Shown here: piece by piece, positions 12,551 to 45,009 of the stretch
How positions within the stretch are numbered: position 1 is the first letter of the stretch
Layout: each line of letters begins with the position of its first letter
Virus record (IMG/VR): IMGVR_UViG_2919015088_000005
Location: 12,365 to 76,364 of that record
DNA from: a virus
Reading direction: 5' to 3' (one strand)
DNA: 64,000 nt
Made by a program: the position numbers and the translations under genes
Notes under the pieces: model-generated
Seen by the model: only the letters and a program-made list of their open reading frames with translations
The model's database searches: none
Told to the model about the DNA's origin: nothing

Positions 12551-14197
12551 TTACAGGCTAGCCACAACTGGGGCGATGATGCCCGCGACGATTGCATACC
12601 CGGCATCGGTCAAATGGATTTGATCGGCAGCGAAATACGTCAGGTTTGTTGGGTCTTTCAAGCGGCTGTCAGAAGCTACGTCTGCGATCCCATCGGCAAA
12701 GCTCGCGTAGTTGTCTCGGATCAGGCCGTTAACAGCAAAATAGTCGACTCCAAACCCCGCGTAGCTGCCAAGGCGAGGCAAACAAGTAGCTACCACCACC
12801 TTGTAGCCGCGCGCCTGTCGCGCCTTGCAGTAGGCGACGATCTTGTCATAGGCCGCTGCGCTGCTGGAGCTTGTCGCAAGCGTGTTGGTTACTTCCCATG
12901 CCACGCAGATATTCTTTGGCGTGGCCGCCGGGAGCCAAAACAGGTCGCCAAAGGCTGGCGTCCCGGAAAGCATCTGGTCGGTGGTTCGCCCAGGGAATGC
13001 ATCCGTGCGGACGTCGTAGTTATTGGCGCCCAACAGGCTCCACAGCACACTTGGGTAGTTGGTTCCGGTCACAGACGTTGCCTGGGTCGGGCCGCCGGTG
13101 CTGTTCGTACCAGATGTCAGGCTGTTGCCAGCACACAGCACGAACTTCTTGGAGTGGAAACCCCACTTTGCCGCCAGATAGTCATAAACCATCCGGTATT
13201 GCTCGTTGGTGAGCGCGGTATTCCAGATCAGAATTTCACTGATGCTGCCGGGCCATGCAAAACCGCCGGCTGCGATGTCGCCAATGGTCAAAACGCCGGT
13301 CAAGCCAAGCGTGCCAGTCGCGGTGATGACGTTGTTATTGGCAGAAGCGCCGCCTGGCGCAGCACTGACCGAGTTGAAATATCGGTCATATTCGTAGGTG
13401 AACGATGTTGCGCGATAGACCAGAGCGTCGATCCCGCTCGTATTGACATAGGGGGTGATCGACGGCGCCGGAGAAACACCAGCAAGCGAAAAGCTGCTGC
13501 TTTTGGCTGAATCATTGCGCTGCAAGTACAGGCGGTTCGAGGCAGAGCCAAGGACGACCTTGTTGGCCGCACCACCACTCGCGGCGCTGACGATGAAGAT
13601 GGTCATCCCTGTGTCGTAAGTGCTATCCAGAAACGACGGGGTGACGAACTTGCTGTTGCCGTTAAAATTGATCGTCGGCCGGCCATTCATGCCTGTTGGG
13701 CTGTAGGTCGGGAATGTTCCGCTAGCCGTGCCGGAGTTGCTGTTGCCGCTCCGATCAGGCCATATTCCGATCTGATCGCCACTGTTGGCGACCTTTGCGG
13801 CATAGCTGGCGGTGTACATGGGCTGAGATGCGTCGAGCCACATCTTCAGGCCTGGAATCTGGTCAGGGGTTATCGATACTGCCGAGCTGGTAGCCAAAAG
13901 CTTGTTCAGCGAGCTATCGACGGCCAGGACCTTGTTGTTGTCAGTGCTGACTGTGACGCTGCCGGTAGCGCACGTAACCAGAAAGCGCTGCTGTCCAGTG
14001 AACGGGCCAATAGAAGAAAGCCCGTTTGCATCTACAGGCCAAGACTTGATTGCGTTATTACCACCCAGCGCTTGGTCAAGGCGATAAATGACGCCGACGG
14101 TGCCTGCCACTCCCTGTGCACTTAGGGTGTAGCCCTCATCTAGCGTTACTACCGCTTTGTCGCCGGCCGAAATGGTCTTCATCGCTTGTTCCTTCAC
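12551..14197 (-). CDS. Multi-domain protein: LamG/concanavalin-like domain plus SGNH/GDSL hydrolase; possible head fibre
   Basis: LKMWLDAS...GSISEILIWNTALT (LamG-like); GNSLT, WEVTN and DQIH match SGNH blocks I, III and V; sits inside the head module. Confidence 0.7.
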   Translation of the reverse strand: MKEQAMKTISAGDKAVVTLDEGYTLSAQGVAGTVGVIYRLDQALGGNNAIKSWPVDANGLSSIGPFTGQQRFLVTCATGSVTVSTDNNKVLAVDSSLNKLLATSSAVSITPDQIPGLKMWLDASQPMYTASYAAKVANSGDQIGIWPDRSGNSNSGTASGTFPTYSPTGMNGRPTINFNGNSKFVTPSFLDSTYDTGMTIFIVSAASGGAANKVVLGSASNRLYLQRNDSAKSSSFSLAGVSPAPSITPYVNTSGIDALVYRATSFTYEYDRYFNSVSAAPGGASANNNVITATGTLGLTGVLTIGDIAAGGFAWPGSISEILIWNTALTNEQYRMVYDYLAAKWGFHSKKFVLCAGNSLTSGTNSTGGPTQATSVTGTNYPSVLWSLLGANNYDVRTDAFPGRTTDQMLSGTPAFGDLFWLPAATPKNICVAWEVTNTLATSSSSAAAYDKIVAYCKARQARGYKVVVATCLPRLGSYAGFGVDYFAVNGLIRDNYASFADGIADVASDSRLKDPTNLTYFAADQIHLTDAGYAIVAGIIAPVVASL

Positions 14198-14219
14198 ATG
14201 TTGGCTTTCGATTTAACGC

Positions 14220-14465
14220 TTACACGGATGCGTCGAGCAGGGCCTGGAGAACGGCTTGGTCTGCGTCATTTTCGAAGGCAATGCCTTTCTCGGTCAGGGC
14301 GGCCTTGGTATCGGCAAGCAGCTTGGCCGCTTTCACTTCTCTGGAAGAAGGCTTTTTGCTGCCGTACAGCTCGTGAACGTTTTCGTCGAAGTCTGACTCG
14401 TTGATCAGCACAAAATCGCCCTGGCCTTCGCCCCACGGTTTCACTTGAATGGTGTTGTCGCTCAT
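14220..14465 (-). CDS. Small head-associated protein
   Basis: 81 aa immediately after the capsid gene. Confidence 0.55.
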   Translation of the reverse strand: MSDNTIQVKPWGEGQGDFVLINESDFDENVHELYGSKKPSSREVKAAKLLADTKAALTEKGIAFENDADQAVLQALLDASV

Positions 14466-14516
14466 GCTCTTCTCCAGGAAGGGATGAGCCCGAGGCCGAA
14501 GCCACGGGCGCAGTCA

Positions 14517-15671
14517 TTACGCCAACAGCAGCGCGGTGTGTTCCGGTTTGACCATCGCAACACCCCAGGCCAGTGCGATCTCGTACTGGATCTGGCGATA
14601 TTGCTTGTACAGCGAGATCTCGAACGACAGGCCACTCACCGGGTCGGTGATGATCATGCGGTCGGAGGCGCTGTCGCCGCCTTCTGGCAGTGCTGGTGCA
14701 CGGGTGGCAACAGCCAGGGCCGAGCGGGCAAATGCCATGTTGCGAGTAGTCGCGGCGATGACGGTGATCGCGGTTGCGGCAGCCGGAATCGCCTTGCGCA
14801 GGCCTGGAGCAGCCAGAACGATGGTGCCGCCGTTCGAGACGTCAGTGTCACCGGTCAATACGACGTACTTGTTGGTGTCGCCGGCGAAGGTGATCACGTC
14901 ACCAGCCAGAACAGTGCCGGTACCGGCCGAGGCCAGGCCGATCGAGGTAGCGCCAACGGCATAACCGGTAGTGTTGGTAGTTGCGGATGCGCCAGTACCA
15001 GCGATCACGGTCTTGACCTGGGCGGATTCGCGGATAGCGAAGCCGTGCACATCGAGCAGCACGCCACGACGCAGCAACGAGGTATCAGCGGCTTCGTTCG
15101 CCTTGGTCAGTTGACCCAAGGTGCGCATGCTGGCGCCGGCGGTGGTGTCCAGCACCATCTGCAGGTCGCTCATTGGCGCACCGTTGTCCGAAAGGATTTT
15201 GCGCATCTGCGCGGCTTCTGCCAGGTTGGTGGCGAACGGAACGGTACCTGGGGTGCCGTAGGCGCGGGACGACTTCAGGCACAGGTTGGCGATGTCGGAC
15301 TCTACTTCGTTGACCAGAGCACGCATGCCCTGGGCGAGCTGGTCGCGCAGGATCACGTTGTACGAGGCGCCGTTGTTGTCCAGGCCGCGTTTCTCTTCAC
15401 CGTTCCAACGCACCGGTACACGGCGAGCCTTGGTGATGGTCATCGACACGGAGCCGATGGTCTGGTCGCCGTCGTTTGGCGGTGTCACAGCCGGAGTGAT
15501 GTCGGTCGCGGTCGCGGCCGGCGCCACTGGCGAGGTAACGGTTTGACCCACGGCGGCGCGGTCGTAGGTCATGTCGGACGACACGGCGGGGATGAAGCCC
15601 ACCAGTTCGCGCGAGACGACGTCCAGCGCGTTGTAGATGGTGGTTGTCAGGCCGGTGAGAGTGTTGCTCAT
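14517..15671 (-). CDS. Major capsid protein (P22-coat-like)
   Basis: 384 aa after the scaffold gene; ends WGVAMVKPEHTALLLA. Confidence 0.85.
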   Translation of the reverse strand: MSNTLTGLTTTIYNALDVVSRELVGFIPAVSSDMTYDRAAVGQTVTSPVAPAATATDITPAVTPPNDGDQTIGSVSMTITKARRVPVRWNGEEKRGLDNNGASYNVILRDQLAQGMRALVNEVESDIANLCLKSSRAYGTPGTVPFATNLAEAAQMRKILSDNGAPMSDLQMVLDTTAGASMRTLGQLTKANEAADTSLLRRGVLLDVHGFAIRESAQVKTVIAGTGASATTNTTGYAVGATSIGLASAGTGTVLAGDVITFAGDTNKYVVLTGDTDVSNGGTIVLAAPGLRKAIPAAATAITVIAATTRNMAFARSALAVATRAPALPEGGDSASDRMIITDPVSGLSFEISLYKQYRQIQYEIALAWGVAMVKPEHTALLLA

Positions 15672-15686
15672 GGATTACTCCTGGGA

Positions 15687-16445
15687 TCAGTCGGTAACAT
15701 CACCGCCCGCAGACACGTGCGCATGCTTGCCCACTGGGTCAAGTGCGTCGAACTGAGAGCGAGAGAGGGATTTTTTGCCGTTGCCGCCATTCCCACCGTT
15801 GTTAGAAGCGCCGGAGCCAGAAGCCCCGGAGCCCTTCAAGATGTGATCGCGGTGCGGGTATTGCTCAACAAGGGTTTCGATTGCTTCATCGAAGTCAGCG
15901 ATTTCACCTGGACGCGCGCGGCTGAATATCTTGTTGCCGTGGTTGTCGTAGGCGACAGTTTTGCCGTCTTCGATCTTGAAGGCGGAGCCGAAACGGGACT
16001 GGACCAGGTCTGCGGGGATTGCCAGCTTCTCGCCGATGTACTTGGAACGGCTGAATGCACCGCCGATCTTTTCTTCGTAGAGCTGCTTTTCGAACGTCGA
16101 TGCTTTTGTGCCGAGATCATCGAGCTGGGCCTGATAGGCTTTGCTGATTTCACCCTTCACCTTTTCGATCTCACCGGCATCCACCAGCTTTTTTGAGTCG
16201 AGGTTTGCAACGATTTCAAGGGCCTTCTTGGCGGCAGCACCGTCCTCGATGCCATCGAACGCTTTCAGGGCCTTTTCAGCCGCTTCTTTGCCTTCGCGGT
16301 GGGTCTTGGCTTCGGTGTTCAGCCGGGTAATCGTGGCGACGGTGCTGACCGCATCAAATGCGACCTCTTTGCCATCGTCGTGCACATACACAGGCTTGCC
16401 GTCTTGCAGAACTGCGTGGCCTTGGTCATCCAATTTCAGTTTCAT
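15687..16445 (-). CDS. Capsid scaffolding protein
   Basis: MKLKLDDQGHAVLQDGKPVY..., coiled coil, GSGASG-rich C-terminus; upstream of capsid. Confidence 0.8.
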   Translation of the reverse strand: MKLKLDDQGHAVLQDGKPVYVHDDGKEVAFDAVSTVATITRLNTEAKTHREGKEAAEKALKAFDGIEDGAAAKKALEIVANLDSKKLVDAGEIEKVKGEISKAYQAQLDDLGTKASTFEKQLYEEKIGGAFSRSKYIGEKLAIPADLVQSRFGSAFKIEDGKTVAYDNHGNKIFSRARPGEIADFDEAIETLVEQYPHRDHILKGSGASGSGASNNGGNGGNGKKSLSRSQFDALDPVGKHAHVSAGGDVTD

Positions 16446-29191: not shown

Positions 29192-29380
29192 TCAGCCCTT
29201 TCGTCCTATGGAAGCGACGTTGCTCCGGCTCTTTGGTGGTCGCGTCATGCGATCCAGCGCCCGGTTCATGATTGTTGCGGCCATCTCTTCTGGCGTTACC
29301 CCGTTGCGTCTGGCCAATAGCTCCAGATCAGCGAGTCCCTGCCAGTCGAGCTGGATTTCCAGCGGTTTTCTTTCAGGCAC
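29192..29380 (-). CDS. Small hypothetical regulator
   Basis: 62 aa, ribbon-helix-helix-like; after the cII-like gene. Confidence 0.55.
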   Translation of the reverse strand: MPERKPLEIQLDWQGLADLELLARRNGVTPEEMAATIMNRALDRMTRPPKSRSNVASIGRKG

Positions 29381-29398
29381 AGGGCCTCCTGGGCCACT

Positions 29399-29587
29399 TC
29401 AGGCCACGTCTGTTTTAGCGTTAAGCTCTTCCATCATCTGGTTCAGGCCGCGCTCGAGGATTTCCCGGGCGAGTACTGCTTTCTGTGTGCGCTGAAAACG
29501 AGCCATCGCTGTCAGCAGGTCGTCGGCCACCTCGTCGAGGCGGACCTTTGTGGGTTTGTCGTGCATGTGGCTTGGGTCGAAGTGCAT
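29399..29587 (-). CDS. CII-like regulator
   Basis: Position after cro; KVRLDE...VLAREIL. Confidence 0.55.
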   Translation of the reverse strand: MHFDPSHMHDKPTKVRLDEVADDLLTAMARFQRTQKAVLAREILERGLNQMMEELNAKTDVA

Positions 29588-29617
29588 CGTTTTTGCTCCT
29601 TTGAGCATGCAAGGTGG

Positions 29618-29812
29618 TTAAGCGGCTGTTTTTTGGGATGGGAACGGACGCTGCTCTTGGGCCGACAAGCTGCCGTCCTCTTCGAGGGTCACGAATACAT
29701 CGCGGCCTACACGGATCGCCTTGCTAAGCGCGCCCTGAGTGCAACCAAGCATCTGGGCAGCCTTGGTATGGCCGTGTTCTTTGGCAAATTCGGTGAGTGT
29801 GATTCGGCGCAT
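29618..29812 (-). CDS. cro: Cro repressor
   Basis: HTH GHTKAAQMLGCTQGALSKAIRVGR; divergent from cI. Confidence 0.85.
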   Translation of the reverse strand: MRRITLTEFAKEHGHTKAAQMLGCTQGALSKAIRVGRDVFVTLEEDGSLSAQEQRPFPSQKTAA

Positions 29813-29842
29813 TGCGGCGTCCTCTACGTAGATTTCACCATA

Positions 29843-29909
29843 AGTATGACCGCCGGTATTGTTCACAGTCAATACCGGCGATATTGGTTAAGTAAATACC
29901 GTGGGTAAT
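29843..29909. promoter_or_regulatory. oR with three 15-bp operators and pR
   Basis: Near-palindromes of consensus AATACC-N3-GGTATT at 29846-29860, 29871-29885 and 29895-29909; minus-strand TTGACT-18 bp-CATACT. Confidence 0.75.
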
Positions 29910-29920
29910 ACCATCAGCAG

Positions 29921-30706
29921 ATGAAAAAAGACTCCCGACGGCTTCCGTTATCCGAATGGCAGCTGCAAGACAGCGCCCGGCTGAAATCCCTATTCCAAGC
30001 TAAGCGCGGGGAACTGAAGCTCACCCAGGAAAAACTTGCTGCTGAATTGGGTGATGGCGTAACCCAGGGGGCAGTGAGCCACTTTATGAACGGACGTACT
30101 GCCCTTAGCGTGAATGCGGCAGTCGTATTTGCTAGAGCGCTCGGGGTGCCGGTTTCGGAGATAAGCCCAACCCTGTCAGCCCAGATCGAGAAAATGTCCC
30201 AGGCGCTCCCAGGAAAAATTTCTCAACAGCCAACTGATGGGCGCACTCAGCCGCGAAGTTTCAACCTGCAGGATGAGCCCGGCTACACAGGCGTTATGCA
30301 ACTGACAGCGCGCGGCTCAACCGGAGACGGCGACGATAACCCACACGTCGAGATCCGCGGCGTAATGGCGTTCAAGTCAACCTGGTTGCGCGCCAACAAC
30401 CTAAACCAGAAACACCTTGACGTGATCTATGCCAGCGGCAACAGCATGGAACCGACCATCAACGACGGCGACGTGCTGCTGGTAGATGAGTCAAAGCTCG
30501 AGCCGAAGGACGGCCAGATATTTGCCATGCAGAGCGAGTCCAAGGGAACGATCGTGAAGCGCCTTGTGAAGTCTGATTTCGAAGGCTGGATCATCCGCAG
30601 CGACAACCCAGATAAGGCCCGCTATGGCGATGAGACGCTACGTGATGGGGAGATAAACGAGGTTCGCATCATTGGGCGCGTTGTTTGGCGCGGCGGCATG
30701 CTATAG
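29921..30706 (+). CDS. cI: CI repressor (HTH plus S24 peptidase)
   Basis: LTQEKLAAEL...TQGAVSHFMNG; GNSMEPTINDGD; catalytic Lys in IVKRL. Confidence 0.95.
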   Translation: MKKDSRRLPLSEWQLQDSARLKSLFQAKRGELKLTQEKLAAELGDGVTQGAVSHFMNGRTALSVNAAVVFARALGVPVSEISPTLSAQIEKMSQALPGKISQQPTDGRTQPRSFNLQDEPGYTGVMQLTARGSTGDGDDNPHVEIRGVMAFKSTWLRANNLNQKHLDVIYASGNSMEPTINDGDVLLVDESKLEPKDGQIFAMQSESKGTIVKRLVKSDFEGWIIRSDNPDKARYGDETLRDGEINEVRIIGRVVWRGGML

Positions 30707-30748
30707 CTGTGTTACGCACGTTTCTACGCACAGCTAATTGCTTTCGCC

Positions 30749-31090
30749 CTACTCTGCCTTTCGAATGTCCACACCTGACACATAGTCTGCGGCGCGGACC
30801 TCAGCCATTTCTTCGCAGTTGATGGTACCGCCGAGCTTCCTGGCTGCCTCCCGGCCATTCATGTACAGGTTGTTGACGGCGATGCCCTTGATGCCTTTAA
30901 AGGTCTTCACGGCTTCGCCCACTCTCAACCAGCCACGAAAATCTCCCGCGTTCATGCCGGCCTTGAAATCCGTACAGCCTGACACCCATATGAACTTGGC
31001 ATCCTCGTTGGCAGCCTGCTGCGAATACCCGAGCACCAGGCTCGGCACGCTAAGCAGCGACAAAAACCCTACCAAGACAATCCTTCTCAT
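30749..31090 (-). CDS. Exported protein (moron in the rex position)
   Basis: Signal peptide MRRIVLVGFLSLLSVPSLVLG; 2 Cys; convergent with cI. Confidence 0.65.
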   Translation of the reverse strand: MRRIVLVGFLSLLSVPSLVLGYSQQAANEDAKFIWVSGCTDFKAGMNAGDFRGWLRVGEAVKTFKGIKGIAVNNLYMNGREAARKLGGTINCEEMAEVRAADYVSGVDIRKAE

Positions 31091-31145
31091 TATTCGCTCC
31101 GCACGCTGATTGAGCCGATTGTAGCAGGCCTTCGACTACAACTAT

Positions 31146-31169
31146 GCCCGCCACCGAGCGGGCTTTTTC
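31146..31169 (+). terminator. Terminator (t-imm-like)
   Basis: GCCCGC-loop-GCGGGC followed by TTTTT. Confidence 0.6.
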
Positions 31170-31187
31170 ACGCCTAATGAAAAATAC

Positions 31188-31229
31188 ATGACCGGCGGTA
31201 TTGACCACATACAATACCGGAGGTATTGT
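31188..31229 (+). promoter_or_regulatory. oL operators and pL
   Basis: Operators at 31188-31202 and 31213-31227 (perfect AATACCGGAGGTATT); TTGACC-17 bp-TATTGT. Confidence 0.8.
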
Positions 31230-31616
31230 TCACCCATCGCAGCGACTTACGAGGGACTGCGAAGGGCCTCACAGCCCGCTGCTCTTTAGCGACACCCCTT
31301 GCCGGATCACCACCGGCCCAGATTCAAAGGCAGCGATGAACCGGCCTAAACGGTTCAGAGGGTTGGCAACTGACCCGGGTGTGCAGCGTAAAGCACCAGA
31401 AGCAGTTATCCGGCGGACAGGGTTCGCGGTCGGAGCAACATCGCAACTACAGAGAATTCCTCGGTAGTTGGATTCAAGCCAGTGAGTGCAGCCAGTAGCT
31501 GATCACGGCTCGCAGATGGCTCCCTGCTGATTCAGGTAGCCATCTGGTTTCACAAATGCCTCTAGACCCCCTGGAGGTATTTGGAAGCCACGAACACCCT
31601 TGACGAGGAATCAACC

Positions 31617-32099
31617 ATGCAAGCAGCAGAGCCAGCACAAGTCACCATCCCTGAAATCGGCGCTGTATGGCCTGGACAGGGCGGCATCTACGCCGGCTTC
31701 ATCCCGGCCCGTAACGATGTCCAGGGCTACCACCTGGTTCTGGGTGATGAGCTTGGACGCTTCGAGTGGGGTCAGTATGGCGATGATTCTCCGGCCACCA
31801 GCCTGATCGATGGCCGAGCCAACACATTGGCGCTAATCGAGTCGGGCGGCGAATACCCTGCCACCATCGCAGCTCACAAGCACGAAGCCGACGGTCACAC
31901 CGACTTCTACCTGCCAGCCGCTGCCGAGCTGTACGAGATATGGCTGAACCTGAATGGCAAGTTGGCCGGCTGGGTGTGGTCCAGCTCGCAGCGCTCAGCC
32001 TACCACGCATTCTACATGTACTTCGCTGGTGGCTATCAGGGCTACGGCGGCAAGACCAGCGTGCTCCGTGTCCGCCCCGTCCGCAGATTCATTCAGTAA
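31617..32099 (+). CDS. DGR target 1, DUF1566/C-type-lectin-fold protein (alternative TTG start at 31581)
   Basis: DFYLPAAAEL...WSSSQRS...RVRPVRR; carries VR1. Confidence 0.9.
   Translation: MQAAEPAQVTIPEIGAVWPGQGGIYAGFIPARNDVQGYHLVLGDELGRFEWGQYGDDSPATSLIDGRANTLALIESGGEYPATIAAHKHEADGHTDFYLPAAAELYEIWLNLNGKLAGWVWSSSQRSAYHAFYMYFAGGYQGYGGKTSVLRVRPVRRFIQ
31986..32090 (+). repeat. DGR variable repeat VR1
   Basis: 105-nt ungapped match to TR; 16 mismatches, all at TR adenines. Confidence 0.95.
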
Positions 32100-32260
32100 T
32101 TCGTTTATTGCTTTTCATGCAGGTGATTCCTGGGCCTACGAGCATCCGTAGCCAGACCAGAAGCGTCCGAGGTAGCGCTCGGCGCCTGCACCCTTTCCCG
32201 CCTCTACCCGTCAGCACTCACCCCGCGCCCATCGGCAACCAGCGGGAGGCATGAGTGTTG

Positions 32261-32737
32261 ATGAATACAGGTGAACAACCCGCCACCTTGGAGGCGACCA
32301 TGAACGCAGCATTGAAGATATGCCAGGAGCGTTACGACGCTCAGTTGCCTCCAGAGGTCAGCGAGGCAAGCCCGGAACAGGAGTGGCTGGAGCACTCGGC
32401 CGAGCAGCTGGTGCGCGGGGTAGACATCAAGTGGAAACGGCGGTGGGGCCGGCCACAGGTCGTCACGTTCGACTGTTACTGCACCTACCTTCAAGGCATC
32501 CTGAATCAGCGCCAGATAGACGGTCTGGATGAGCGTGATTCGTTCGCCCGACTGTTTCTGTCGGCCATCGGCGGCAGTGCAAGCGAAGCGCGCGGTCATG
32601 CCATTGACCTGATCGCCTCTGACAAGCCTGTGGAGTTCGCCGAGTCTGTCGCGATGACCTTGCTTGCCCCATACGCTAAAGACGCAGCAGCGGCCGAACG
32701 AGAGGCTGCTGAAGACGATGTGGATGCCGACCTATGA
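32261..32737 (+). CDS. Hypothetical early protein
   Basis: 158 aa; first of an overlap-coupled series. Confidence 0.65.
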   Translation: MNTGEQPATLEATMNAALKICQERYDAQLPPEVSEASPEQEWLEHSAEQLVRGVDIKWKRRWGRPQVVTFDCYCTYLQGILNQRQIDGLDERDSFARLFLSAIGGSASEARGHAIDLIASDKPVEFAESVAMTLLAPYAKDAAAAEREAAEDDVDADL

Positions 32738-32925
32738 GTCCTCACATCCTGATCGATGAGGCTCTGGAAACCCTGACCCATCCAGACAGCCCCGACGGCT
32801 CCCAGCACATCGTCCTGAACATGATCACCAACATGCTCACCGGCAACGCCATCACCAATGAAGAGTTCGCCCACTACTGCCAGCGCCTCCTGAAGATCAC
32901 CAGGCAGCGCAAGGAGGCCGCATGA
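32734..32925 (+). CDS. Hypothetical protein
   Basis: 63 aa; ATGA overlaps. Confidence 0.55.
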   Translation: MSPHILIDEALETLTHPDSPDGSQHIVLNMITNMLTGNAITNEEFAHYCQRLLKITRQRKEAA

Positions 32926-33116
32926 CCACTCCAGTCGTGAAAACGCTGATCGACGACCAGCTCGACGACATCGAGCGCCGCATTGCCATCATGGGCTTCG
33001 GCCTTCCCTTCAACGAACTGATCGGGCGCAAGCGTGAAGACTTGGTGCGGGACCTGCCGCAGCGCCTGGCGCCGACAATGAAGGGCGGCCGAATCGAGGT
33101 GAGGATTCGGCCGTGA
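32922..33116 (+). CDS. Hypothetical protein
   Basis: 64 aa; ATGA overlaps. Confidence 0.55.
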   Translation: MTTPVVKTLIDDQLDDIERRIAIMGFGLPFNELIGRKREDLVRDLPQRLAPTMKGGRIEVRIRP

Positions 33117-33232
33117 CCACCCACCAGCGGCACCGGCGCCGCGCCATCCGCGCTCTGTCGGCCATAGTTGGCCTGACCTTCCTCACCATCGTTCTACTGG
33201 GCCCCGCAATCGGCGGCCTGATCACCCAATAA
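33113..33232 (+). CDS. Small single-pass membrane peptide
   Basis: GTG start; TTHQRHRRRAIR followed by a hydrophobic helix; 39 aa. Confidence 0.45.
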   Translation: MTTHQRHRRRAIRALSAIVGLTFLTIVLLGPAIGGLITQ

Positions 33233-33275
33233 ACAACATCTTCAATCGCTGCGAGCATCGCGGCAGGGAGTCACC

Positions 33276-34379
33276 GTGTCCGCACAACAGCAAGTAATCA
33301 CCATCGACGACATCAGCGCCGACAACGCGCCGGCCATTTACGTCGCCGGCGGCCTGAGCCAGTTCTTCGACGCGGTGAAGGCCGAAGTAACCGCCGAGGT
33401 GCCCGATCTGACTACCGTGAAAGGTCGCGCTCGCATTGCATCCCTGGCCGCAACGGTAAGCAAGTCCAAAAAGGCAGTCGAGACGCCTGGTCGCGACTAC
33501 CTGAAGCGCCTCAAGGAAATGCCGAAGGTGGTGGAGGCTGAGCTGCGCGATTTCGTCACCAAGATGGACAGCCTACGCGATACCACCCGACAGCCGCTGA
33601 CGGACTGGGAAAACGCTGAGCAGGCCCGCAAGGACCGGCACATAGACAACATCCAGGCGATCAAGGATATGGAGGTGTTTGGAGCAACGCCGACCGCTTC
33701 TGCACTGAAACAGGTAATTGCCCAGTTGGAAGAGGTTGAGCTGGGTGACTCCTGGGAAGAGTTCCTGCCAGAGGCCGCCCAGGCTAAAGACCGAACCCTT
33801 TCCCTGCTGCGCGCACTGCTAGCCGATCGCACTCAGTACGAAGCCGAACAGGCCGAGTTGACCCGCCTTCGCCTGGAGAAGGAAGCCCGCGATAAGAAGG
33901 ACAACGAGGACCGCATTGCCCGCGAGGCCGCCGAAGAAGCAACACGGGCAGCCGAAGAAAAGGCACGCCTTGATCGTGAGGCCGAAGAAAAGCGCGTTCG
34001 CAACGAGCAGGCCGCCGCCGAGAAGCGGGAAAACGATCTGAAATTGCAGGCCGCCGAAGCCGAGCGCCAGGCCGAACAGGCAAAGCGCGAAAAGGTCGAG
34101 GCAGAACAGAAGGCCGAGCGCGACCGCCTACAAGGCATCGAGGACAAGAAAAAAGCCGTCGAACAGGCCCGGCTGGATGAGAAGGCCCGTGCCGACGCGG
34201 CAGCAGACGAAATCCTGCGCCAGCAGCAGGCGCGCGAGGCGGACAAGGCCCACAAGGGCGCGATCTACAAAGCAGCCAAGGAAGCATTCATCCAGCACGG
34301 CATGACGGAAGAATGCGCGCGACTCGCTGTGAAGCTGGTTGCGAGCGGTCTCATCCCGTCCATGTCCATCCAATACTGA
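33276..34379 (+). CDS. Long coiled-coil protein preceding the recombination genes
   Basis: 367 aa, E/K/A/R-rich. Confidence 0.7.
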   Translation: MSAQQQVITIDDISADNAPAIYVAGGLSQFFDAVKAEVTAEVPDLTTVKGRARIASLAATVSKSKKAVETPGRDYLKRLKEMPKVVEAELRDFVTKMDSLRDTTRQPLTDWENAEQARKDRHIDNIQAIKDMEVFGATPTASALKQVIAQLEEVELGDSWEEFLPEAAQAKDRTLSLLRALLADRTQYEAEQAELTRLRLEKEARDKKDNEDRIAREAAEEATRAAEEKARLDREAEEKRVRNEQAAAEKRENDLKLQAAEAERQAEQAKREKVEAEQKAERDRLQGIEDKKKAVEQARLDEKARADAAADEILRQQQAREADKAHKGAIYKAAKEAFIQHGMTEECARLAVKLVASGLIPSMSIQY

Positions 34380-34386
34380 GGTCACC

Positions 34387-35169
34387 ATGAGTAATTTAGC
34401 GTTGGCCGAACAGGCCGAAACCCAGCAGGTAGCCAACCCCGTGGCCACTAATGAATCTACTGCGATGCTGACAATGATTCAGCGAGCGGCGACTGACCCA
34501 GCATTTGATGCCGACAAGATGCAGAAGATGATGGAGATGTACGAGCGCCATACGGATCGCACAGCAGCAGCAGCTTTCAATGCCGCAATGGTCCGCGCCC
34601 AGGCTCAGATTGGTCCGGTATTCCGCGACAAAATCAATACGCAAACCAGCAGTTCCTACGCGGCACTTGAATCGATCGATAAGAAGATATCCCCGGTTTA
34701 CACCGCCTACGGCTTTTCATTGTCGTTCGGCACCGCCGATAGCTCGTTGGTCGGCCACATCCGCACCGTTTGCGACTGCATGCACGAAGGCGGCCACACC
34801 AAGCAGTATCACATCGACCTTCCCATTGACTCCGTCGGCATCAAGGGCAGCGTGAATAAAACAGGTGTCCACGCAAGCGGATCGACCTTCAGCTACGCCC
34901 GCCGCTACCTGACGATGATGATCTTCAACGTGGTAATGACCAATGAAGACGACGACGGACAAGGTGCGAACAGCCCTCAAGATCCTCCGCCAGAGCCAGT
35001 CATAACCGCAGGCCAGGCAGCCCAACTCGACGCACTTCTGAAAAAATGTACTCCGGTGCTACAAGAGAACTTCACCGCCAAATACGGCTGCGCAGCCAAC
35101 GTTTACAAGTCTGAGTTTGACGCGGTGTCGGCCCGCATCACCAAGTCTGCCAATCGCCCTCAGGAGTAA
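34387..35169 (+). CDS. erf: ERF-family single-strand annealing protein
   Basis: SSYAALESID...GSTFSYARRY. Confidence 0.8.
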   Translation: MSNLALAEQAETQQVANPVATNESTAMLTMIQRAATDPAFDADKMQKMMEMYERHTDRTAAAAFNAAMVRAQAQIGPVFRDKINTQTSSSYAALESIDKKISPVYTAYGFSLSFGTADSSLVGHIRTVCDCMHEGGHTKQYHIDLPIDSVGIKGSVNKTGVHASGSTFSYARRYLTMMIFNVVMTNEDDDGQGANSPQDPPPEPVITAGQAAQLDALLKKCTPVLQENFTAKYGCAANVYKSEFDAVSARITKSANRPQE

Positions 35170-35172
35170 GTT

Positions 35173-35790
35173 ATGCAAATCATCACTGAAGTTGAGCAGG
35201 GTTCGCCAGAGTGGCTGGCCCTGCGCCTGGGCATCGTCACTTGCTCCGAGCTGGAGTGCCTGCTTACCAACGGAAAGGGCGAGGCTGGTTTCGGCGTGGG
35301 AGCCTTCACCTACATGAACACGCTGATCGGCGAGCGCATCACCGGTGAGGCTGCCGACCCATTCCAGGGCAACCGCCACACAGAGCGTGGCCATGAGCTG
35401 GAAGGCGTTGCCCGCAAGCTGTACGAGCAGCGAGAAGAGGTCGAAACCAAGCAGGTGGCGATCATCCTAAACCACGGCGCCGGTTACTCGCCTGACTCGC
35501 TAGTGGACGCCAATGGCCTGACGGAGATTAAGACCAAGCTCCCGAAATTCCAGGTTGAGGTGATCCTTTCCGGCGAGATCCCGAAAGAACACGTTGCCCA
35601 ATGCCAGGGCGGTCTGTGGATATCGGAGCGTGAGTGGATCGACTTCGTTTGCTACTGGCCAGGCATGCCGCTGTTCATCAAGCGCGCATACCGGGATGAG
35701 GCGCTGATCCGCAAGCTGTCGGAGCGGGTCAAAACCTTCTACGAAATCTTGGAAGACCGGATGAATCGGGTCTTGGGGATAGCAGCATGA
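35173..35790 (+). CDS. YqaJ/lambda-type exonuclease
   Basis: QGSPEWLALRLGIVTCS, RGHELE, SPDSL, EIK. Confidence 0.9.
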   Translation: MQIITEVEQGSPEWLALRLGIVTCSELECLLTNGKGEAGFGVGAFTYMNTLIGERITGEAADPFQGNRHTERGHELEGVARKLYEQREEVETKQVAIILNHGAGYSPDSLVDANGLTEIKTKLPKFQVEVILSGEIPKEHVAQCQGGLWISEREWIDFVCYWPGMPLFIKRAYRDEALIRKLSERVKTFYEILEDRMNRVLGIAA

Positions 35791-36380
35791 TCAGCAACCA
35801 CCTAGGCATGGTCGAGGCTCTTCGGCCAGCATCGAACGAACTGGCCGCAGCGGTCGAGCAGTTCCTGGCGGCAGGCGGACATATCGAAGAAGGCCCGGCC
35901 TGCGGTTACATCCCCAAGCCCATCACCTACAGCAACCAGATGCCGCCGACACCGAAGCCGTTTGTGCGGCGCCGGGTCGAGCCGGCTCCCCTGCCCTTTG
36001 CTCCGCTCGACGTCAGGAGCGACAAGCGCGCCAAGCAGGCAGAGCTGGCAAAGGCCCTGGCCCCAACCCACACGCAAAGCCAAGCCTCTATGGAGCTTGG
36101 AATGACCAGCAAAACGCTCAAAGGCATGGCAAAGGACTACGGGTTCACGTTCAAGCGGTCAACGCATGGCGGGAACAATGGGCCGGAGCGCCAAAAGCAA
36201 ATCGCCGAGCGAAACGCCAAGTTTGCCGAGCGCATCAAGGAGTTCAAAGAACAGGGCATTACCCAGCGCCAGGCATATGGAAGGCTGGGTATCTCAAGGA
36301 AAACGTTCGAGAGAATCCTTGAAGAGCATGGGATTGATTATCCGAAAGCATGCCTTGGGCGTCCTTCATGCGCCGCGTAG
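35787..36380 (+). CDS. Hypothetical DNA-binding protein
   Basis: Two HTH-like segments in the C-terminal half. Confidence 0.6.
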   Translation: MISNHLGMVEALRPASNELAAAVEQFLAAGGHIEEGPACGYIPKPITYSNQMPPTPKPFVRRRVEPAPLPFAPLDVRSDKRAKQAELAKALAPTHTQSQASMELGMTSKTLKGMAKDYGFTFKRSTHGGNNGPERQKQIAERNAKFAERIKEFKEQGITQRQAYGRLGISRKTFERILEEHGIDYPKACLGRPSCAA

Positions 36381-36449
36381 CCCGCATCCAGCAACGCAAA
36401 CGTCAAACCTGGCTCGCACTGCCGGCCAGCGGAATAGAAGAGGTAGGCC

Positions 36450-36761
36450 ATGGCAGCCGCGCAGAAAGAACGATCGGCAAAGACTGAGGCGAGGCGAAAG
36501 ACTCGCGGCGAGGAAGAATTGCGATTCCACACCATGGCCGGCACCCGCCAAGCCCTGGCTGACTTGATGGCCTGGCACGGCATCGAGGAACAGGGCGAGG
36601 CTATGACCCTGATGATTCACCACCTGCACGGCCTGGGCCCAGCAGGATCAGCGCAGTTCCTCGCACCGCCGCGACACGAATACGTGATACCCGAAAACGT
36701 GTCGGCAAAATTGCAGCTCGCCTACAACCGCGAATCGCTACGCATCTGTCACGACGAATAA
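36450..36761 (+). CDS. Hypothetical phage protein
   Basis: 103 aa; GAGG RBS upstream. Confidence 0.6.
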   Translation: MAAAQKERSAKTEARRKTRGEEELRFHTMAGTRQALADLMAWHGIEEQGEAMTLMIHHLHGLGPAGSAQFLAPPRHEYVIPENVSAKLQLAYNRESLRICHDE

Positions 36762-36818: not shown

Positions 36819-37430
36819 ATGAAAACTGAAATGATCACCCTGAAGCACGGTGACGCATCTATCAAGATGCCCGCTTCGTCCCTGGCAAAACTTGCAATGG
36901 CCAGTGTGTTCGCCCAGGTGCTGCCGCCGGCAGCGAATGTTCAGCCAGTACCCCAACCCCCGACCCCGGAGATTGGCCAGCCGTGGCCCGGCCAGGGCGG
37001 AATCAACGGCGGCCTCGTCCATGCCCGTGGCGACGTTCCGGCGCATTACCTGATCATCGCGACCAAGGACGTTGGCAGCCTTGAATGGGGTGGCCGTGGC
37101 GTGGAGGTGAAAGGCCTCAGCAAAACTGACGGTTACATCAACACCCAAGTGCTGATCGGAAACGACGACGAGCGAAAATATCCCGCTGCCGACGCGTGCG
37201 CCGAGTACCAGGCCGATGGTCACCACGACTTCTACCTGCCGGCCGCTGCCGAGCTGTACCAGGGCTGGCTGAACTGTCCCGAGGTGTTCGACCAGGACTG
37301 CTACTACTGGTCATCTTCGCAGCGCTCAGCCAACACCGCATTCCTCATGCACTTCGGTGCTGGCATTCAGGACAACGACGACAAGTACGACGAGCTCCGT
37401 GTCCGCCCCGTCCGCAGATTCTTTATTTAA
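36819..37430 (+). CDS. DGR target 2, DUF1566/C-type-lectin-fold protein
   Basis: GQPWPGQGG...DFYLPAAAEL...YWSSSQRS...RVRPVRR; carries VR2. Confidence 0.9.
   Translation: MKTEMITLKHGDASIKMPASSLAKLAMASVFAQVLPPAANVQPVPQPPTPEIGQPWPGQGGINGGLVHARGDVPAHYLIIATKDVGSLEWGGRGVEVKGLSKTDGYINTQVLIGNDDERKYPAADACAEYQADGHHDFYLPAAAELYQGWLNCPEVFDQDCYYWSSSQRSANTAFLMHFGAGIQDNDDKYDELRVRPVRRFFI
37317..37421 (+). repeat. DGR variable repeat VR2
   Basis: 105-nt match to TR; 11 mismatches, all at TR adenines. Confidence 0.95.
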
Positions 37431-37509
37431 TTCTTCATCCATTCGTTCTTGATCCGGCACACCAGGGCGCACAGCGCCTTTTTTGTTGCCTTCGAAAAGA
37501 GGAAGCATC

Positions 37510-38130
37510 ATGTCTGTAGTTGAAAAAGCAGCACCGGCAGAAACCACCCCGGCTATCGGCCAGGCCTACGGCGGCGGTTTCGTCACCGGCATCACCCGCG
37601 ACCCGGTGACCGGCAAGCGCTCCCTGCATATCACCGCCGGTGCCGAGCATGAACTGGTCGGTGATTGGGGTAAGTACGGCGAGAAGATCGAAGGAGCCGA
37701 CAGCTTCACCGACAGCCTGGCCAATACCCAGGCTATGGCTGCGGCTGGCAGTGATCTGGCAGCGAAAGTGCTGGACCTGAACATTGACGGCTTCACCGAC
37801 TGGGCGATCCCGGCGCGGGATGTGCAGGAGCTGCAATACCGCCACTTCAAGCCGACCACTGAAGAGAACTGGGAGAACTCACACAACGATGACAACCCGC
37901 ACAGCGAGCCAGTAGGTCAGCTGTACAGCGCCGAAGACCCGCTGCAAACAGTTCATACCGCCTTCCAGGAGGGGGGCGCCGAAGCCTTCCGCGACACCTG
38001 GTACTGGTCATCTTCGCAGCGCTCAGCCCTCACCGCTTTCTTCATGGTCTTCGCTGATGGCTTTCAGCACTACTTCGCCAAGGGCAACGAGCTCCGTCTC
38101 CGCCCCGTCCGCAGCGAACTTATTGATTAA
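37510..38130 (+). CDS. DGR target 3, DUF1566/C-type-lectin-fold protein
   Basis: TDWAIPARDVQEL...WYWSSSQRS...RLRPVRS; carries VR3. Confidence 0.9.
   Translation: MSVVEKAAPAETTPAIGQAYGGGFVTGITRDPVTGKRSLHITAGAEHELVGDWGKYGEKIEGADSFTDSLANTQAMAAAGSDLAAKVLDLNIDGFTDWAIPARDVQELQYRHFKPTTEENWENSHNDDNPHSEPVGQLYSAEDPLQTVHTAFQEGGAEAFRDTWYWSSSQRSALTAFFMVFADGFQHYFAKGNELRLRPVRSELID
38014..38114 (+). repeat. DGR variable repeat VR3
   Basis: 101-nt match to TR; 18 mismatches at adenines plus one G>C in the 3' constant part. Confidence 0.9.
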
Positions 38131-38184
38131 TTCGCTTATTTAATCCGGCCGCTTGCGGCCGGTTGCTCTTGGAGAGCGTGCCCA

Positions 38185-38541
38185 ATGGCAATGCATACGG
38201 AACTTGCGATCTACAAGGCCGCCAGCGGCTTGCTTCACATAGCCACAAATATGACCCGGAACGTACCTCGCGACCTGAAACAGTCGCTTGGAAAGCGGGT
38301 GATCGACGAATGCATTGATGTCCTGATGCTGATTGCCCGTGCCAATGCAACTCAGGACAAGCGGCCACACCTGACCCTGCTGGTCGAGAAGGTGCAGGTG
38401 GTAGAGTTCCTGATGCGACTCTTCAAAGACAACCGCTTCATCAGCACCCCACAACACGCCCAGGCAATTGAGGTAACGACCTCGATTGGCAAGCAAGCAA
38501 ACGCCTGGAAACGCTCCACCCTAACCGCGCCCGCTACCTGA
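38185..38541 (+). CDS. avd: Accessory variability determinant (four-helix bundle)
   Basis: 118 aa, ELAIYKAA...PRDLKQSLGKR...IGKQANAW; located between targets and TR-RT. Confidence 0.85.
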   Translation: MAMHTELAIYKAASGLLHIATNMTRNVPRDLKQSLGKRVIDECIDVLMLIARANATQDKRPHLTLLVEKVQVVEFLMRLFKDNRFISTPQHAQAIEVTTSIGKQANAWKRSTLTAPAT

Positions 38542-38713
38542 AGGTTACGGCTTTCTGGTCTGTGCGAATTGAATCTGGTCGTGCCGCTGACCTGATAGGT
38601 CACCGCCATGCGCACAAGGGATACCGCCGGTCTAAAGCGTCCGTGTAGGTCTCGCGCAGTTTCCAAGCTGATCGGCTCTGCCTTCGGCTTGGCGACGTAG
38701 ATAGCACGATAGG
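38542..38713 (+). ncRNA. Structured 5' leader of the DGR template RNA
   Basis: Nested complementarities 38578-84/38704-10, 38561-66/38611-16, 38588-93/38597-602 and 38663-68/38687-92. Confidence 0.5.
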
Positions 38714-38818
38714 TCGCAGCGCTCAGCCAACAACGCATTCAACATGAACTTCGATGATGGCAATCAGAACAACAACGACAAGAACAACGAGCTCCGTGTC
38801 CGCCCCGTCCGCAGATTC
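38714..38818 (+). repeat. DGR template repeat TR
   Basis: AAC-rich (9 AAC plus 1 AAT codon; 29 adenines in the 63-nt core 38729-38791); lies between avd and RT. Confidence 0.95.
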
Positions 38819-38822
38819 GACT

Positions 38823-39914
38823 TTGGGTCCCTACCCGTTTCAGGATCTGGTCCAGGCTTATTACGACTGCCGGCGTACCAAGCGCAACAGCGACAGCGCG
38901 CTGGCCTTCGAGATAGACCTCGAGCGGAACCTGATCCAGTTACACGACGACCTGATGGCCGGCGCTTACCGGCCGGGCCGATCCATCTGTTTTGTGGTCA
39001 CCCGACCGAAAGCCCGCGAGGTATGGGCAGCGGCCTTTCGGGACCGCGTCGTCCACCACCTGCTGTACAACCATGTGGCACCGCGCTTCTACGCCAGCTT
39101 CATAGCGGACAGTTGCGCATGCATTCCAGGGCGCGGCACGCTGTACGCCGCCACACGGCTTGAGTCGAAGATACGCAGCGCCTCGCAGAACTGGTCAAAA
39201 CCGTGCTGGTATCTCAAGCTCGACTTGGCCAACTTCTTCGTCGCCATCGACAAGGCGGTACTGCGCAAGCAACTGGCTGCCAGGATCACCGAACCCTGGT
39301 GGTTTGCCCTGGCCACGCAGGTCCTCATGCACGACCCGCGCGAGGATTACGAGACGCGCAGCCCGGCCCACCTGTTCAACCGGGTACCGCAGCACAAACG
39401 CCTGGTGGCACAGCCCGCGCACCTCGGTCTGCCGATCGGCAACCTGTCGTCGCAGTTCTTCGCCAACGTCTACCTCGACGCTCTGGACCAGTTCGCCAAG
39501 CACACGCTGCGCGCCAAGCACTACATCCGCTACGTCGACGACTTCGTGTTCCTGCATGAGTCGCCGCAGCAGCTCAACCAGTGGCTCGCAGAGGTTGAAG
39601 CGTTCCTACCCAGGCTCGGCGCCAAGCTGAACCCGACCAAGACGATCCTGCAACCAGTGGATCGAGGCGTCGACTTCGTTGGGCACGTGATCAAGCCTTG
39701 GCGGCGAATCACCCGTAAACGATCCCTGGCGCAGGCATTGAAGCGCACCGCGGCGGCGCCGGCCGAGGATCTGCGCGAGACAGCCAACAGTTACTTCGGC
39801 CTGCTCAGCCAGGCCAGTCACAGCCAGAAAGACCGCGCCGCCTTGGCGAATGTCGTGCTGAAGCGCGGCAACACGGTCAACGCTGCGCTGACCAAGACCT
39901 ACCAGAAGAAATAA
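38823..39914 (+). CDS. DGR reverse transcriptase (start uncertain: in-frame TTG at 38823; the ORF track begins at 38754, inside TR)
   Basis: FRDRVVHH, YLKLDLANFF, GLPIGNLSSQFFANVYL, YIRYVDD, GVDFVG. Confidence 0.95.
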   Translation: MGPYPFQDLVQAYYDCRRTKRNSDSALAFEIDLERNLIQLHDDLMAGAYRPGRSICFVVTRPKAREVWAAAFRDRVVHHLLYNHVAPRFYASFIADSCACIPGRGTLYAATRLESKIRSASQNWSKPCWYLKLDLANFFVAIDKAVLRKQLAARITEPWWFALATQVLMHDPREDYETRSPAHLFNRVPQHKRLVAQPAHLGLPIGNLSSQFFANVYLDALDQFAKHTLRAKHYIRYVDDFVFLHESPQQLNQWLAEVEAFLPRLGAKLNPTKTILQPVDRGVDFVGHVIKPWRRITRKRSLAQALKRTAAAPAEDLRETANSYFGLLSQASHSQKDRAALANVVLKRGNTVNAALTKTYQKK

Positions 39915-39957: not shown

Positions 39958-40426
39958 ATGCCCGATATCACCTACGGCTCTGTGTGCAGCGGCATCGAAG
40001 CCGCGACACAGGCCTGGCACCCGCTGGGCATGCGCGCCGCCTGGTTCGCCGAGATTGAGCCGTTTCCCTCGGCGGTCCTGGCCCACCACTACCCGGACGT
40101 GCCGAACCACGGCGACATGACCAAGCTGGCCGCCCTGGTGCTGGCCGGCAAGATCCCGGCACCGGACGTGCTGGTCGGCGGCACCCCGTGCCAAGCTTTC
40201 TCGGTCGCCGGTATGCGCGAAGGCCTCACCGACCCGCGCGGCGCCCTCACCATCAAATACGTGGAGCTTGCAGATGCAGTTGACTATGTTCGCGCCTGCC
40301 AGCGAATGCCCGGACGGCCCCCGCTACAAGGCGATCGGCAACAGCAAGGCCGTGCCTTGCGTACGCTGGATCGGCCGACGCATCCTCAAGCAGATCAGTC
40401 CTTCAAATTGGTGTCAGATTCAATAA
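39958..40426 (+). pseudogene. C5 cytosine DNA methyltransferase with a large internal out-of-frame deletion
   Basis: Motif I SVCSGIE and motif IV GGTPCQAFS, then a switch at about 40304-40307 to a +1 frame carrying motif X CPDGPRYKAIGNSKAVPCVRWIG; motifs VI-VIII and the TRD are absent. Confidence 0.85.
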
Positions 40427-40628
40427 TCGGCTGAGCGTCCCCGCCCTCACGCTTAAATCGTAACCACTCTCTGGCCCGGACTACGTTGAAAACCCAAAGG
40501 TCTTGGTGAAATAAGTGAAGAGCTGTCCCGGAAATGCGATACCAACCACACTCGACGCAGTTGACCAACTTACCGCCATTTGCGATAGGCCCATCCGTGG
40601 CCGGGCCGCTGCACACAAAACAATTCAT
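40395..40628 (-). CDS. Small zinc-ribbon protein
   Basis: CFVC...CVEC; 77 aa; antisense to the early-left operon. Confidence 0.55.
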   Translation of the reverse strand: MNCFVCSGPATDGPIANGGKLVNCVECGWYRISGTALHLFHQDLWVFNVVRAREWLRFKREGGDAQPIIESDTNLKD

Positions 40629-43693: not shown

Positions 43694-43941
43694 ATATCGA
43701 ACAGGAAATTATTCACGTCCCTGAACTAGCGAAGTTGCTGGGCCGGTCCGAGTCATCGATTCGTAGCGCGCACCAGGCGGGAGCGTACTGGCTGCCGCCT
43801 TTCTTCAAGCAGGGAAGCCGGATCTGCTGGAGGGTAAGCACGGTCCTGCGATTCCTGAAGGAGTGCGAGGAAGGGATGCATGCGCCGAAGCGCCCTGGCC
43901 GGAAGCGCCAGACGCCGCCGACGCTCTCCCGTGTCGGCTAA
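43690..43941 (+). CDS. Excisionase/AlpA-like protein
   Basis: wHTH VPELAKLLGRSESSIR...WRVSTV; convergent with int. Confidence 0.75.
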   Translation: MNIEQEIIHVPELAKLLGRSESSIRSAHQAGAYWLPPFFKQGSRICWRVSTVLRFLKECEEGMHAPKRPGRKRQTPPTLSRVG

Positions 43942-44915
43942 CCGAGCTTGTCGGCCAGGGCGTCAGGGCAAAGGTGCGTGTACCTGCGTAAAACACTGAG
44001 GGTGCGGTGGCCTGTGATGGAGGCCACTTCCATGAGCGACAACCCCCTTTCAAAGAAGCGCGACGTGCCTTCATGTCGCATATCGTGGAAGTGGAGATCC
44101 TTTACTCCGGCCGCCCGGCAGGCGCGCAGGAAATACTGGCTGACGGAGTGCGGGGCCAGGGAGAATACCTGGCCATCAATGCGTGCGGGTAACGACTCAA
44201 GCAGCGCGCGCGCACGAATCGATAGCGGCACAAGCCGGCGGCTGCCGTTCTTGGTGTCCTCAAGCAGCGCGTGCTTGCCCTTGATGTCGGCGCGCCGGAG
44301 TGTCAGCAGTTCGCTACGGCGCATTGCGGTCTCCACGGCAATCTCGATGATCACCGGCATTTCCGCATGGATTGCACCTGCAGCCTTGATCACTGCTTTC
44401 AACTCAGCAGCACTCGGCCGGCGGTCACGCTCCCGGCTCCCCTTGGGCATCCGAAGCTTTGCTACCGGGTTGCTTAGCCCCTCAATCCCCCAGTCCTTGA
44501 TAGCCACGGTGTACAAATGGCTGATCAGCGCCAGCGATAATCGAATGGTGTTGGTTGATGCCCCGGCAGCCAGGCGCGCATCACGGTACTCGGCCAGGTC
44601 AGACGACCGCAGTTCGGCCAGCGACTTGCCGCCATACTTCCCTTCGGACCACGTCTTTATCCGGGTCAGCTCCTGGCGAGCCCCCTTCTTCTGCGTAGAC
44701 ACTTCTCGCGCATAGCGCTCAAAGGCCTTCGCAACCGTTGTGGCTTCGGCCTCGCGGGTATCGACGAAGCGCTTGCGCGACATATCCCCCTCGATTTCAG
44801 AAGCCCACCGCTGAGCCTCCGCCTTCGTGTCGAACGAAGCCGAAAGTGCCGGGTATCCTTTTTTGCGGATCTTGGTCCGCCATGTCCCATTGGGACGTTG
44901 TTCGATAGTCGCCAT
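43938..44915 (-). CDS. int: Tyrosine integrase
   Basis: TAMRRSEL (catalytic R), HDMRHE, GH and RYTHL catalytic residues; adjacent to att. Confidence 0.95.
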   Translation of the reverse strand: MATIEQRPNGTWRTKIRKKGYPALSASFDTKAEAQRWASEIEGDMSRKRFVDTREAEATTVAKAFERYAREVSTQKKGARQELTRIKTWSEGKYGGKSLAELRSSDLAEYRDARLAAGASTNTIRLSLALISHLYTVAIKDWGIEGLSNPVAKLRMPKGSRERDRRPSAAELKAVIKAAGAIHAEMPVIIEIAVETAMRRSELLTLRRADIKGKHALLEDTKNGSRRLVPLSIRARALLESLPARIDGQVFSLAPHSVSQYFLRACRAAGVKDLHFHDMRHEGTSRFFERGLSLMEVASITGHRTLSVLRRYTHLCPDALADKLG

Positions 44916-45009
44916 GCAGCGGATTTTGCCGATCAGTCCTGGGACATGCAAACAGTGTCGCTGTCCCAGAATTGTCCCAATCGCCGCGCCGAACAAAATC
45001 CGCAGGCAT

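Follow-up and report, generated by a model that had tools for sequence, protein, structure and literature searches.

Gene layout and repeat-bearing genes

The DNA analyzed here (the window, 64,000 nt at its full length) comes from an IMG/VR provirus record 76.6 kb long and is identical to L019, a contig of assembly GCA_031455125.1. It is a Pseudomonas prophage with its genes arranged much as in lambda. On the minus-strand arm are cro, a pRha-domain gene, two kinds of replication gene (DnaT-like and lambda-P-like) and NinG; the plus-strand arm extends from 31617 to ~43.7 kb, with Erf and a YqaJ exonuclease inside and a tyrosine integrase at its end. The genes and repeats concerned are the following:

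29618–29866, minus strand: Cro-like gene as called (Pfam Cro match on the called gene of L019)
29921–30706, plus strand: CI-type repressor, 261 aa (Pfam domains HTH_3 and Peptidase_S24)
30749–31090, minus strand: 113-aa ORF with a Sec-type signal peptide, between cI and the pL-like promoter
31617–32099, plus strand: VR1 target gene, 160 aa
31986–32090, plus strand: VR1, the remote variable repeat, codons 124–158
32300–36761, plus strand: nine early-left genes unrelated to the DGR, between the VR1 and VR2 genes
34387–35169, plus strand: Erf, within the nine intervening genes
35173–35790, plus strand: YqaJ exonuclease, within the nine intervening genes
36819–37430, plus strand: VR2 target gene (VR2, 37317–37421)
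37483–38130, plus strand: VR3 target gene (VR3, 38014–38114)
38185–38541, plus strand: avd accessory gene (Pfam bAvd)
38525–38716, plus strand: RT-15 RNA (Rfam RF03018), directly 5' of TR (182 bits, gathering score 82)
38714–38818, plus strand: TR, 105 nt with 33 adenines, overlapping the start of the RT gene
38754–39914, plus strand: DGR reverse transcriptase (RT), 386 aa, with IGNLSSQ and YVDD read from the sequence
43938–44996, oriented opposite to the plus-strand arm: tyrosine integrase

The Cro-like gene probably starts at the ATG at 29813. Pfam, PHROGs, NCBIfam and PADLOC give no family match for the 113-aa ORF, and a homologue was found in none of the relatives compared; it looks like a secreted, moron-like gene. 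After the RT gene lies a cytosine-5 DNA methylase gene (39958–40434) of only 158 aa, which appears truncated relative to the methyltransferase found at the same place in the isolated phage Cruim01.

VR1 as a non-adjacent target of the DGR

VR1 is a genuine non-adjacent target of the single DGR of this prophage. Repeat finding and alignment place four copies of the 105-nt unit in the window. Aligned without gaps over 105 positions, VR1 and TR show 16 differences, every one of them at a TR adenine (P = 3.7e-10, hypergeometric, 33 adenines among 105 positions), and the 72 non-A bases of TR are all identical in VR1. The repeat begins exactly at codon 124 of the 160-codon gene. Across the window a 27-nt GC-rich tract, for which chance predicts 0 copies, is present exactly three times (32064, 37395 and 38792). 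From the letters alone, the sequence-only reading had described VR1 as lying about 6.6 kb upstream of TR, separated from the cassette by about ten unrelated genes and matching TR perfectly at every non-A base over 105 nt, 3' GC-rich tract included. The measurements agree: 6,624 nt separate the end of VR1 from the start of TR, the 72 non-A positions and the 27-mer are shared, and “about ten” is a fair count since nine called ORFs, unrelated to the DGR, stand between the VR1 and VR2 genes.

The two targets next to the cassette show the same bias. VR2 has 11 differences at TR adenines and no other; VR3 has 18 and, in addition, a single G>C at TR position 85; its homology to TR stops ~4 nt earlier, i.e. 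its 3' homology is shorter. The G>C change (38098) falls inside the GC-rich 3' homology and is absent from the VR3 copies of relatives. This means either that the position is not part of the stretch copied into VR3, or that no homing into VR3 has occurred since it changed.

By Pfam, the RT contains RVT_1 (1.5e-18), and its IGNLSSQ and YVDD fit the motifs IGxxxSQ and YxDD of DGR-type RTs. Avd is recognized by Pfam bAvd (45.2 bits, cut-off 40) and, below threshold, by NCBIfam DivGenRetAVD (51 bits, cut-off 80). Searches with PADLOC and NCBIfam of VR1, VR2, VR3 and the neighbouring genes returned no match beyond generic RT ones.

The 3' side of the targets differs from that of Bordetella phage BPP-1 (mtd-avd-TR-brt), which has in common with the window Avd, TR, RT, adenine mutagenesis, GC-rich 3' homology and a CLec target. 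Target recognition in BPP-1 needs a GC-rich hairpin/cruciform 3' of the IMH. No stable stem was found directly 3' of VR1 or VR2; hairpins are present 3' of VR3. Each of the three VRs is instead followed by an AT-rich tract:

32091–32118, plus strand: AT-rich tract directly 3' of VR1, stop codon included
37422–37450: AT-rich tract after VR2 (TTCAGTAATTC..TTATT-like)
38115–38145: AT-rich tract after VR3 (TTCAGTAATTC..TTATT-like)

A related tract (~18–28 nt, including the stop codon) follows every VR in all relatives and is lacking at TR, and the sequence beyond it is unconserved. We propose the tract as a candidate cis element that may mark the targets of this DGR in place of the BPP-1 hairpin.

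Relatives were drawn from IMG/VR (12 loci), from GTDB genomes (9 loci, three of which duplicate IMG/VR ones) and from GenBank phages, including Cruim01. Common to 16 distinct RT-bearing Pseudomonas (pro)phages are a VR1-type gene and a cassette with at least one target, avd, TR and RT; in the 15 that allow the measurement, 2.6–9.0 kb separate the remote VR from TR. The TRs of these relatives form 8 sequence types distinguished at non-A positions, and in 14 of the 16 (pro)phages, Cruim01 included, the remote VR bears the non-A variants of its own TR. When all remote VRs were compared with all TRs, 14 of 15 loci had a remote VR free of non-A mismatches to its own TR, with 1–19 mismatches to the other TR types; of 69 informative TR substitutions, 63 recur in the remote VR. 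Such concerted evolution of TR and VR1 across several kb is a prediction of repeated retrohoming, not of simple shared descent. Among 95 orthologues of the protein (155–164 aa), entropy peaks exactly at the residues whose TR codons contain adenine, the rest of the scaffold being conserved.

Cruim01 (PP179333; Cruxvirus imai) is an isolated relative, its host being P. syringae CC1557. Its cassette is the same, the RT being 89% identical; its remote VR, at a distance of 9.0 kb, differs from TR at 10 A and 0 non-A positions. The protein targeted there is longer than the VR1 protein and shares only 45% identity with it. The Cruim01 record (L001, PP179333.1) holds a full three-target DGR, at 5237–5836 and 12967–16054, which is annotated as a “retron-type RNA-directed DNA polymerase” with hypothetical proteins. 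The paper describing Cruim01 makes no mention of a DGR.

Some loci depart from this pattern. In L009 and L012 the GC-rich 3' end of VR1 mismatches the resident TR: the remote VR of L009 has 8 non-A mismatches to it over positions 1–101, and the VR1 gene of L012 has a premature stop. These two VR1s look like recombinant, uncoupled and possibly decaying targets. At L009:10349–10453 and L012:10001–10453, taken with L021, the 3' homology of VR1 belongs to another TR type than the resident one. Non-A divergence in the VR1 of relatives, which the sequence-only reading had named as evidence against its own proposal, is thus seen in L009 and L012 and is zero in 14 of the 15 loci. That reading had also asked whether related prophages keep the gene when the DGR is absent. 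Some do: it is uninterrupted in two complete proviruses without RT (L008 and L010) and in one with only a 54-aa RT remnant (L007). psageK9 lacks both the gene and the DGR.

VR1 alleles are also shared between phages. The VR1 gene of L008 is identical to that of L009, and P0001, a protein encoded in another metagenome, departs from the window protein at a single VR residue, the repressor (cI) next to it being different from that of the window and of another length. Near-identical alleles in phages that differ elsewhere indicate that turnover is not fast. A Logan contig (L020), the one further copy found with DNA for comparison, is 100% identical to the window over 6 kb; it is probably the same strain, and hence uninformative on VR variation within a strain.

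One could ask if VR1 is a fossil, diversified once and no longer a substrate in this phage, its A-only pattern being inherited. The uncoupled VR1s of L009 and L012, the gene kept in RT-less proviruses, the shared alleles and the missing hairpin 3' of VR1 all fit such a history. It would have to accommodate 0 non-A differences over 72 positions, including those where this TR type departs from the TRs of relatives, the tracking of their own TR by 14 of 15 relatives, and a 3' AT-rich tract conserved as at VR2 and VR3; we consider it unlikely. The same exceptions, set beside the concerted pattern, point to a diversification that is real for the lineage but episodic. The earlier view that VR1 is “still” retrohomed in trans accordingly stands on an evolutionary time scale, with the 14 of 15 loci, the 63 of 69 substitutions and the entropy profile, and fails if taken to mean fast turnover. 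For this particular lysogen we infer that retrohoming may be ongoing.

Control region and leader upstream of the VR1 gene

Between the Cro-like gene and the VR1 gene we found a set of putative control sites:

29853–29878: oR-like operator palindrome, CCGGTATTG-N8-CAATACCGG; a promoter-like site (29872>29843), directed leftward to the cro-like gene, overlaps it
31146–31163, plus strand: intrinsic-terminator-like hairpin with a T run, upstream of the pL-like promoter
31195–31229, plus strand: oL-like operator palindrome (31195–31220) overlapping the pL-like promoter
31201–31229, plus strand: pL-like promoter of sigma-70-like type, TTGACC, 17-nt spacer, TATTGT
31280–31440, plus strand: leader module with a boxA-like sequence, TGCTCTTTAGCG (31280–31291), and a structured element (31328–31440)
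31514–31582, plus strand: two leader hairpins, the first (31514–31545) followed by GGTTTCAC, the second just before GAGGAA

The 26-bp palindrome has only two sites in the 64 kb (0.02 expected), at 29853 and 31195, which flank cI. A consensus scan of 29300–32400 finds promoter-like sites at these two operators only, and the rightward hexamers TTGACC/TATTGT score 9/12 against the consensus. The terminator-like hairpin upstream of the pL-like site would insulate it from cI transcription; it is also present in L006 and in Cruim01. An exact 13-mer search for shared operators in the relatives proved too strict, as it misses even the pair of the window, and a targeted look at L006 was more fruitful. 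The repressor of L006 is only 57% identical to that of the window. In L006 terminator, -35 hexamer and leader are all retained, and the operator is a different palindrome, ATATGAAC-N5-GTACATAT, which recurs at the phage's own cro-cI region (oR). Such joint change of operator and repressor is good evidence, by comparison, for a promoter under repressor control.

The leader between this promoter and the VR1 gene is 390 nt long and folds unusually well (z = -4.85). The core of its boxA-like sequence, GCTCTTTA, is unique in the window, and the ~115-nt structured element is nearly invariant across divergent phages. The leader element is probably a cis-acting antitermination module of the nut/put type. 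An Rfam search of the leader gave no family at the gathering score nor at E up to 5, and a literature search found no paper on the element. Three helices are predicted in it, with covariation confined to the third. An exact 36-mer of the element (31352–31387) recurs in at least 120 IMG/VR contigs (L031–L150). Among the matches listed, GCTCTTTA stands 43–71 nt upstream of the 36-mer in 100 of 116 contigs, and the commonest first ORF after it is holin-like (~112 aa), as in tailocin/prophage lysis operons.

A small Arg-rich ORF within the leader (31336–31467) was considered as an N-like gene and rejected. It is nearly invariant at all codon positions, the third included, and in relatives its frame is broken by an indel of 1 nt with respect to the window; we therefore regard it as non-coding. 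The hairpin followed by GGTTTCAC (31514–31553), lying between promoter and gene, might attenuate transcription unless it is antiterminated.

Past the leader, the ATG of the VR1 gene at 31617, with the ribosome-binding site GAGGAA at short spacing, opens the first credible ORF. The gene had been placed from sequence as the first clear ORF after pL/oL, in the slot held by N in lambda. This placement gains support from the start site, and both sequence and comparison corroborate it with the duplicated operator, the promoter-like site, the upstream terminator and the nut-like leader. The VR1 gene is thus predicted, with support from these features, to be the first ORF behind a repressor-controlled pL/oL equivalent. 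We infer that it is transcribed from pL, with early timing. Behind a repressor-controlled early promoter the gene would be silent in the lysogen and its product among the first proteins made upon induction or infection.

The likeness to lambda N/nutL, i.e. a first ORF downstream of pL/oL preceded by a boxA-like sequence and a structured RNA leader, is positional only. The VR1 protein does not have the character of an N-type antiterminator, a small arginine-rich RNA-binding protein.

Alternatively, the VR1 gene could be a moron expressed in the lysogen from its own promoter, e.g. for a hypervariable sensor or exclusion protein, in a slot adjacent to the immunity region and not under pL. The slot upstream of VR1 is indeed highly mosaic among relatives, other phages with the same leader have different first genes, DGR-less proviruses keep the gene, and a hairpin with a short T run precedes it. 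Against such an arrangement, the scan reported no promoter-like site in the region besides those at the two operators, the gene directly follows the conserved leader with its short ribosome-binding-site spacing, it is co-oriented and contiguous with the Erf/exonuclease early genes, and its protein has no effector domain. We judge this alternative improbable, to the same degree as the fossil target. Finally, it is very improbable that the site at 31188–31229 mainly controls the leftward 113-aa ORF, VR1 being read from elsewhere: the operator is palindromic and this ORF starts ~100 nt to its left, but the better-scoring hexamers are the rightward ones, the scan reported no promoter-like site facing left there, and L006 keeps the rightward -35 and the leader without a homologue of the ORF. 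The operator at 31195 could nevertheless control the leftward ORF as well as the VR1 gene.

The VR1 protein and the place of the DGR in the phage

The VR1 protein consists of a single CLec/DUF1566 domain of 160 aa. Its match to Pfam Lcl_C (DUF1566, PF07603) is below threshold (25.6 bits, cut-off 34.9), as are the Lcl_C matches of all three targets; its orthologues are named DUF1566 by their sources, and PHROGs assigns it to phrog_4245, a family without assigned function. The AF2 model has a pLDDT of 82.5, lower over the VR loop. With VIA-align the model matches 4eps, the DUF1566 domain of BACOVA_04982 (Z 10.4, rmsd 3.3, 158 aligned), 8q4e, the C-terminal domain of Legionella Lcl (Z 9.8, rmsd 3.8, 117 aligned), and Bd2740 (Z 8.5), followed by many C-type lectin domains and T. 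denticola TvpA. The top Foldseek match against the PDB is marginal (E 2.3e-3).

No signal-peptide features were found at the N-terminus of the VR1 protein, whereas the product of the adjoining 113-aa ORF has a classic one; the VR2 and VR3 proteins are also without signal peptide. The VR1 protein is therefore presumably cytoplasmic. No effector domain was found in it, and it is presumably a stand-alone intracellular CLec binder. The sequence-only reading went further, and saw in it a protein that immediately neutralizes or engages a host factor; this is a conjecture. A literature search found no paper on what DUF1566 proteins do when encoded in the early region of a phage.

Part of what we describe is already published, namely non-adjacent DGR targets in prophages and short DUF1566 targets. 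Of the 372 DGRs surveyed by Wu et al. 2018 (NAR, PMC5758913), 45 were given targets that are not adjacent, in many cases phage-associated and within 50 kb. Their DUF1566 category “d” consists for about half of short proteins made of DUF1566 alone; the text of that paper does not mention Pseudomonas. As in their prophage cases, one TR serves adjacent targets and a target kb away, with A-only differences. In contrast to these cases, the distant target is here the first ORF of what would be a repressor-controlled early-left operon, a position conserved across a phage lineage. The DUF1566/CLec2 variable proteins, such as Legionella LdtA, likewise have a DUF1566-type CLec domain with the VR at its C-terminus; LdtA is a surface lipoprotein, whereas the VR1–VR3 proteins lack a signal peptide, and their genes sit among those for early recombination functions. 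In BPP-1 one adjacent tail-fibre gene of the late region is diversified, and here three non-structural targets of the early region. The targets of viral DGRs are mostly tail proteins (Roux et al. 2021, PMC8144416). The uncommon aspects are thus the first-gene position in the early operon and the non-structural nature of all three targets.

The mechanism we propose would run as follows. The DGR RNA, i.e. the RT-15 element with TR, would be copied by an RT-Avd complex into cDNA in which the adenines of TR are randomized, and this cDNA would take the place of the final 105 coding nt of three CLec/DUF1566 paralogues, each of which presents the same GC-rich 3' homology and then an AT-rich tract. 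One of these genes would have been placed, or retained, 6.6 kb upstream of TR, behind a rightward repressor-controlled promoter and a nut-like leader. Its product would be a small, presumably cytoplasmic protein with a hypervariable, presumably ligand-binding face. We give about two chances in three to this reading as a whole, i.e. that VR1 is a real non-adjacent DGR target, the first ORF behind the pL equivalent, and encodes a variable cytoplasmic binder made early.

A broader proposal is that VR1, VR2 and VR3 encode DGR-diversified cytoplasmic early binders, an adaptable tool for counter-defence or host takeover, with the VR1 protein, first from pL, being the first to meet a variable host or competitor protein. 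We regard it as doubtful. If true, it would give a viral counterpart to the DGR-diversified intracellular sensors proposed for bacteria.

In the characterized phage DGRs, diversification of a tail fibre serves host switching. The conserved Pseudomonas phage lineage described here would instead diversify three small, presumably intracellular lectin-fold proteins of the early operon, one of them encoded by the first ORF behind the early promoter. With the present evidence this is one more example of a published category and not a new mechanism. One member of the lineage, Cruim01, has been isolated and its laboratory host is known; should the VR1–VR3 proteins bind factors of the host or of rival phages, DGRs would also serve the intracellular conflict between phage and host.
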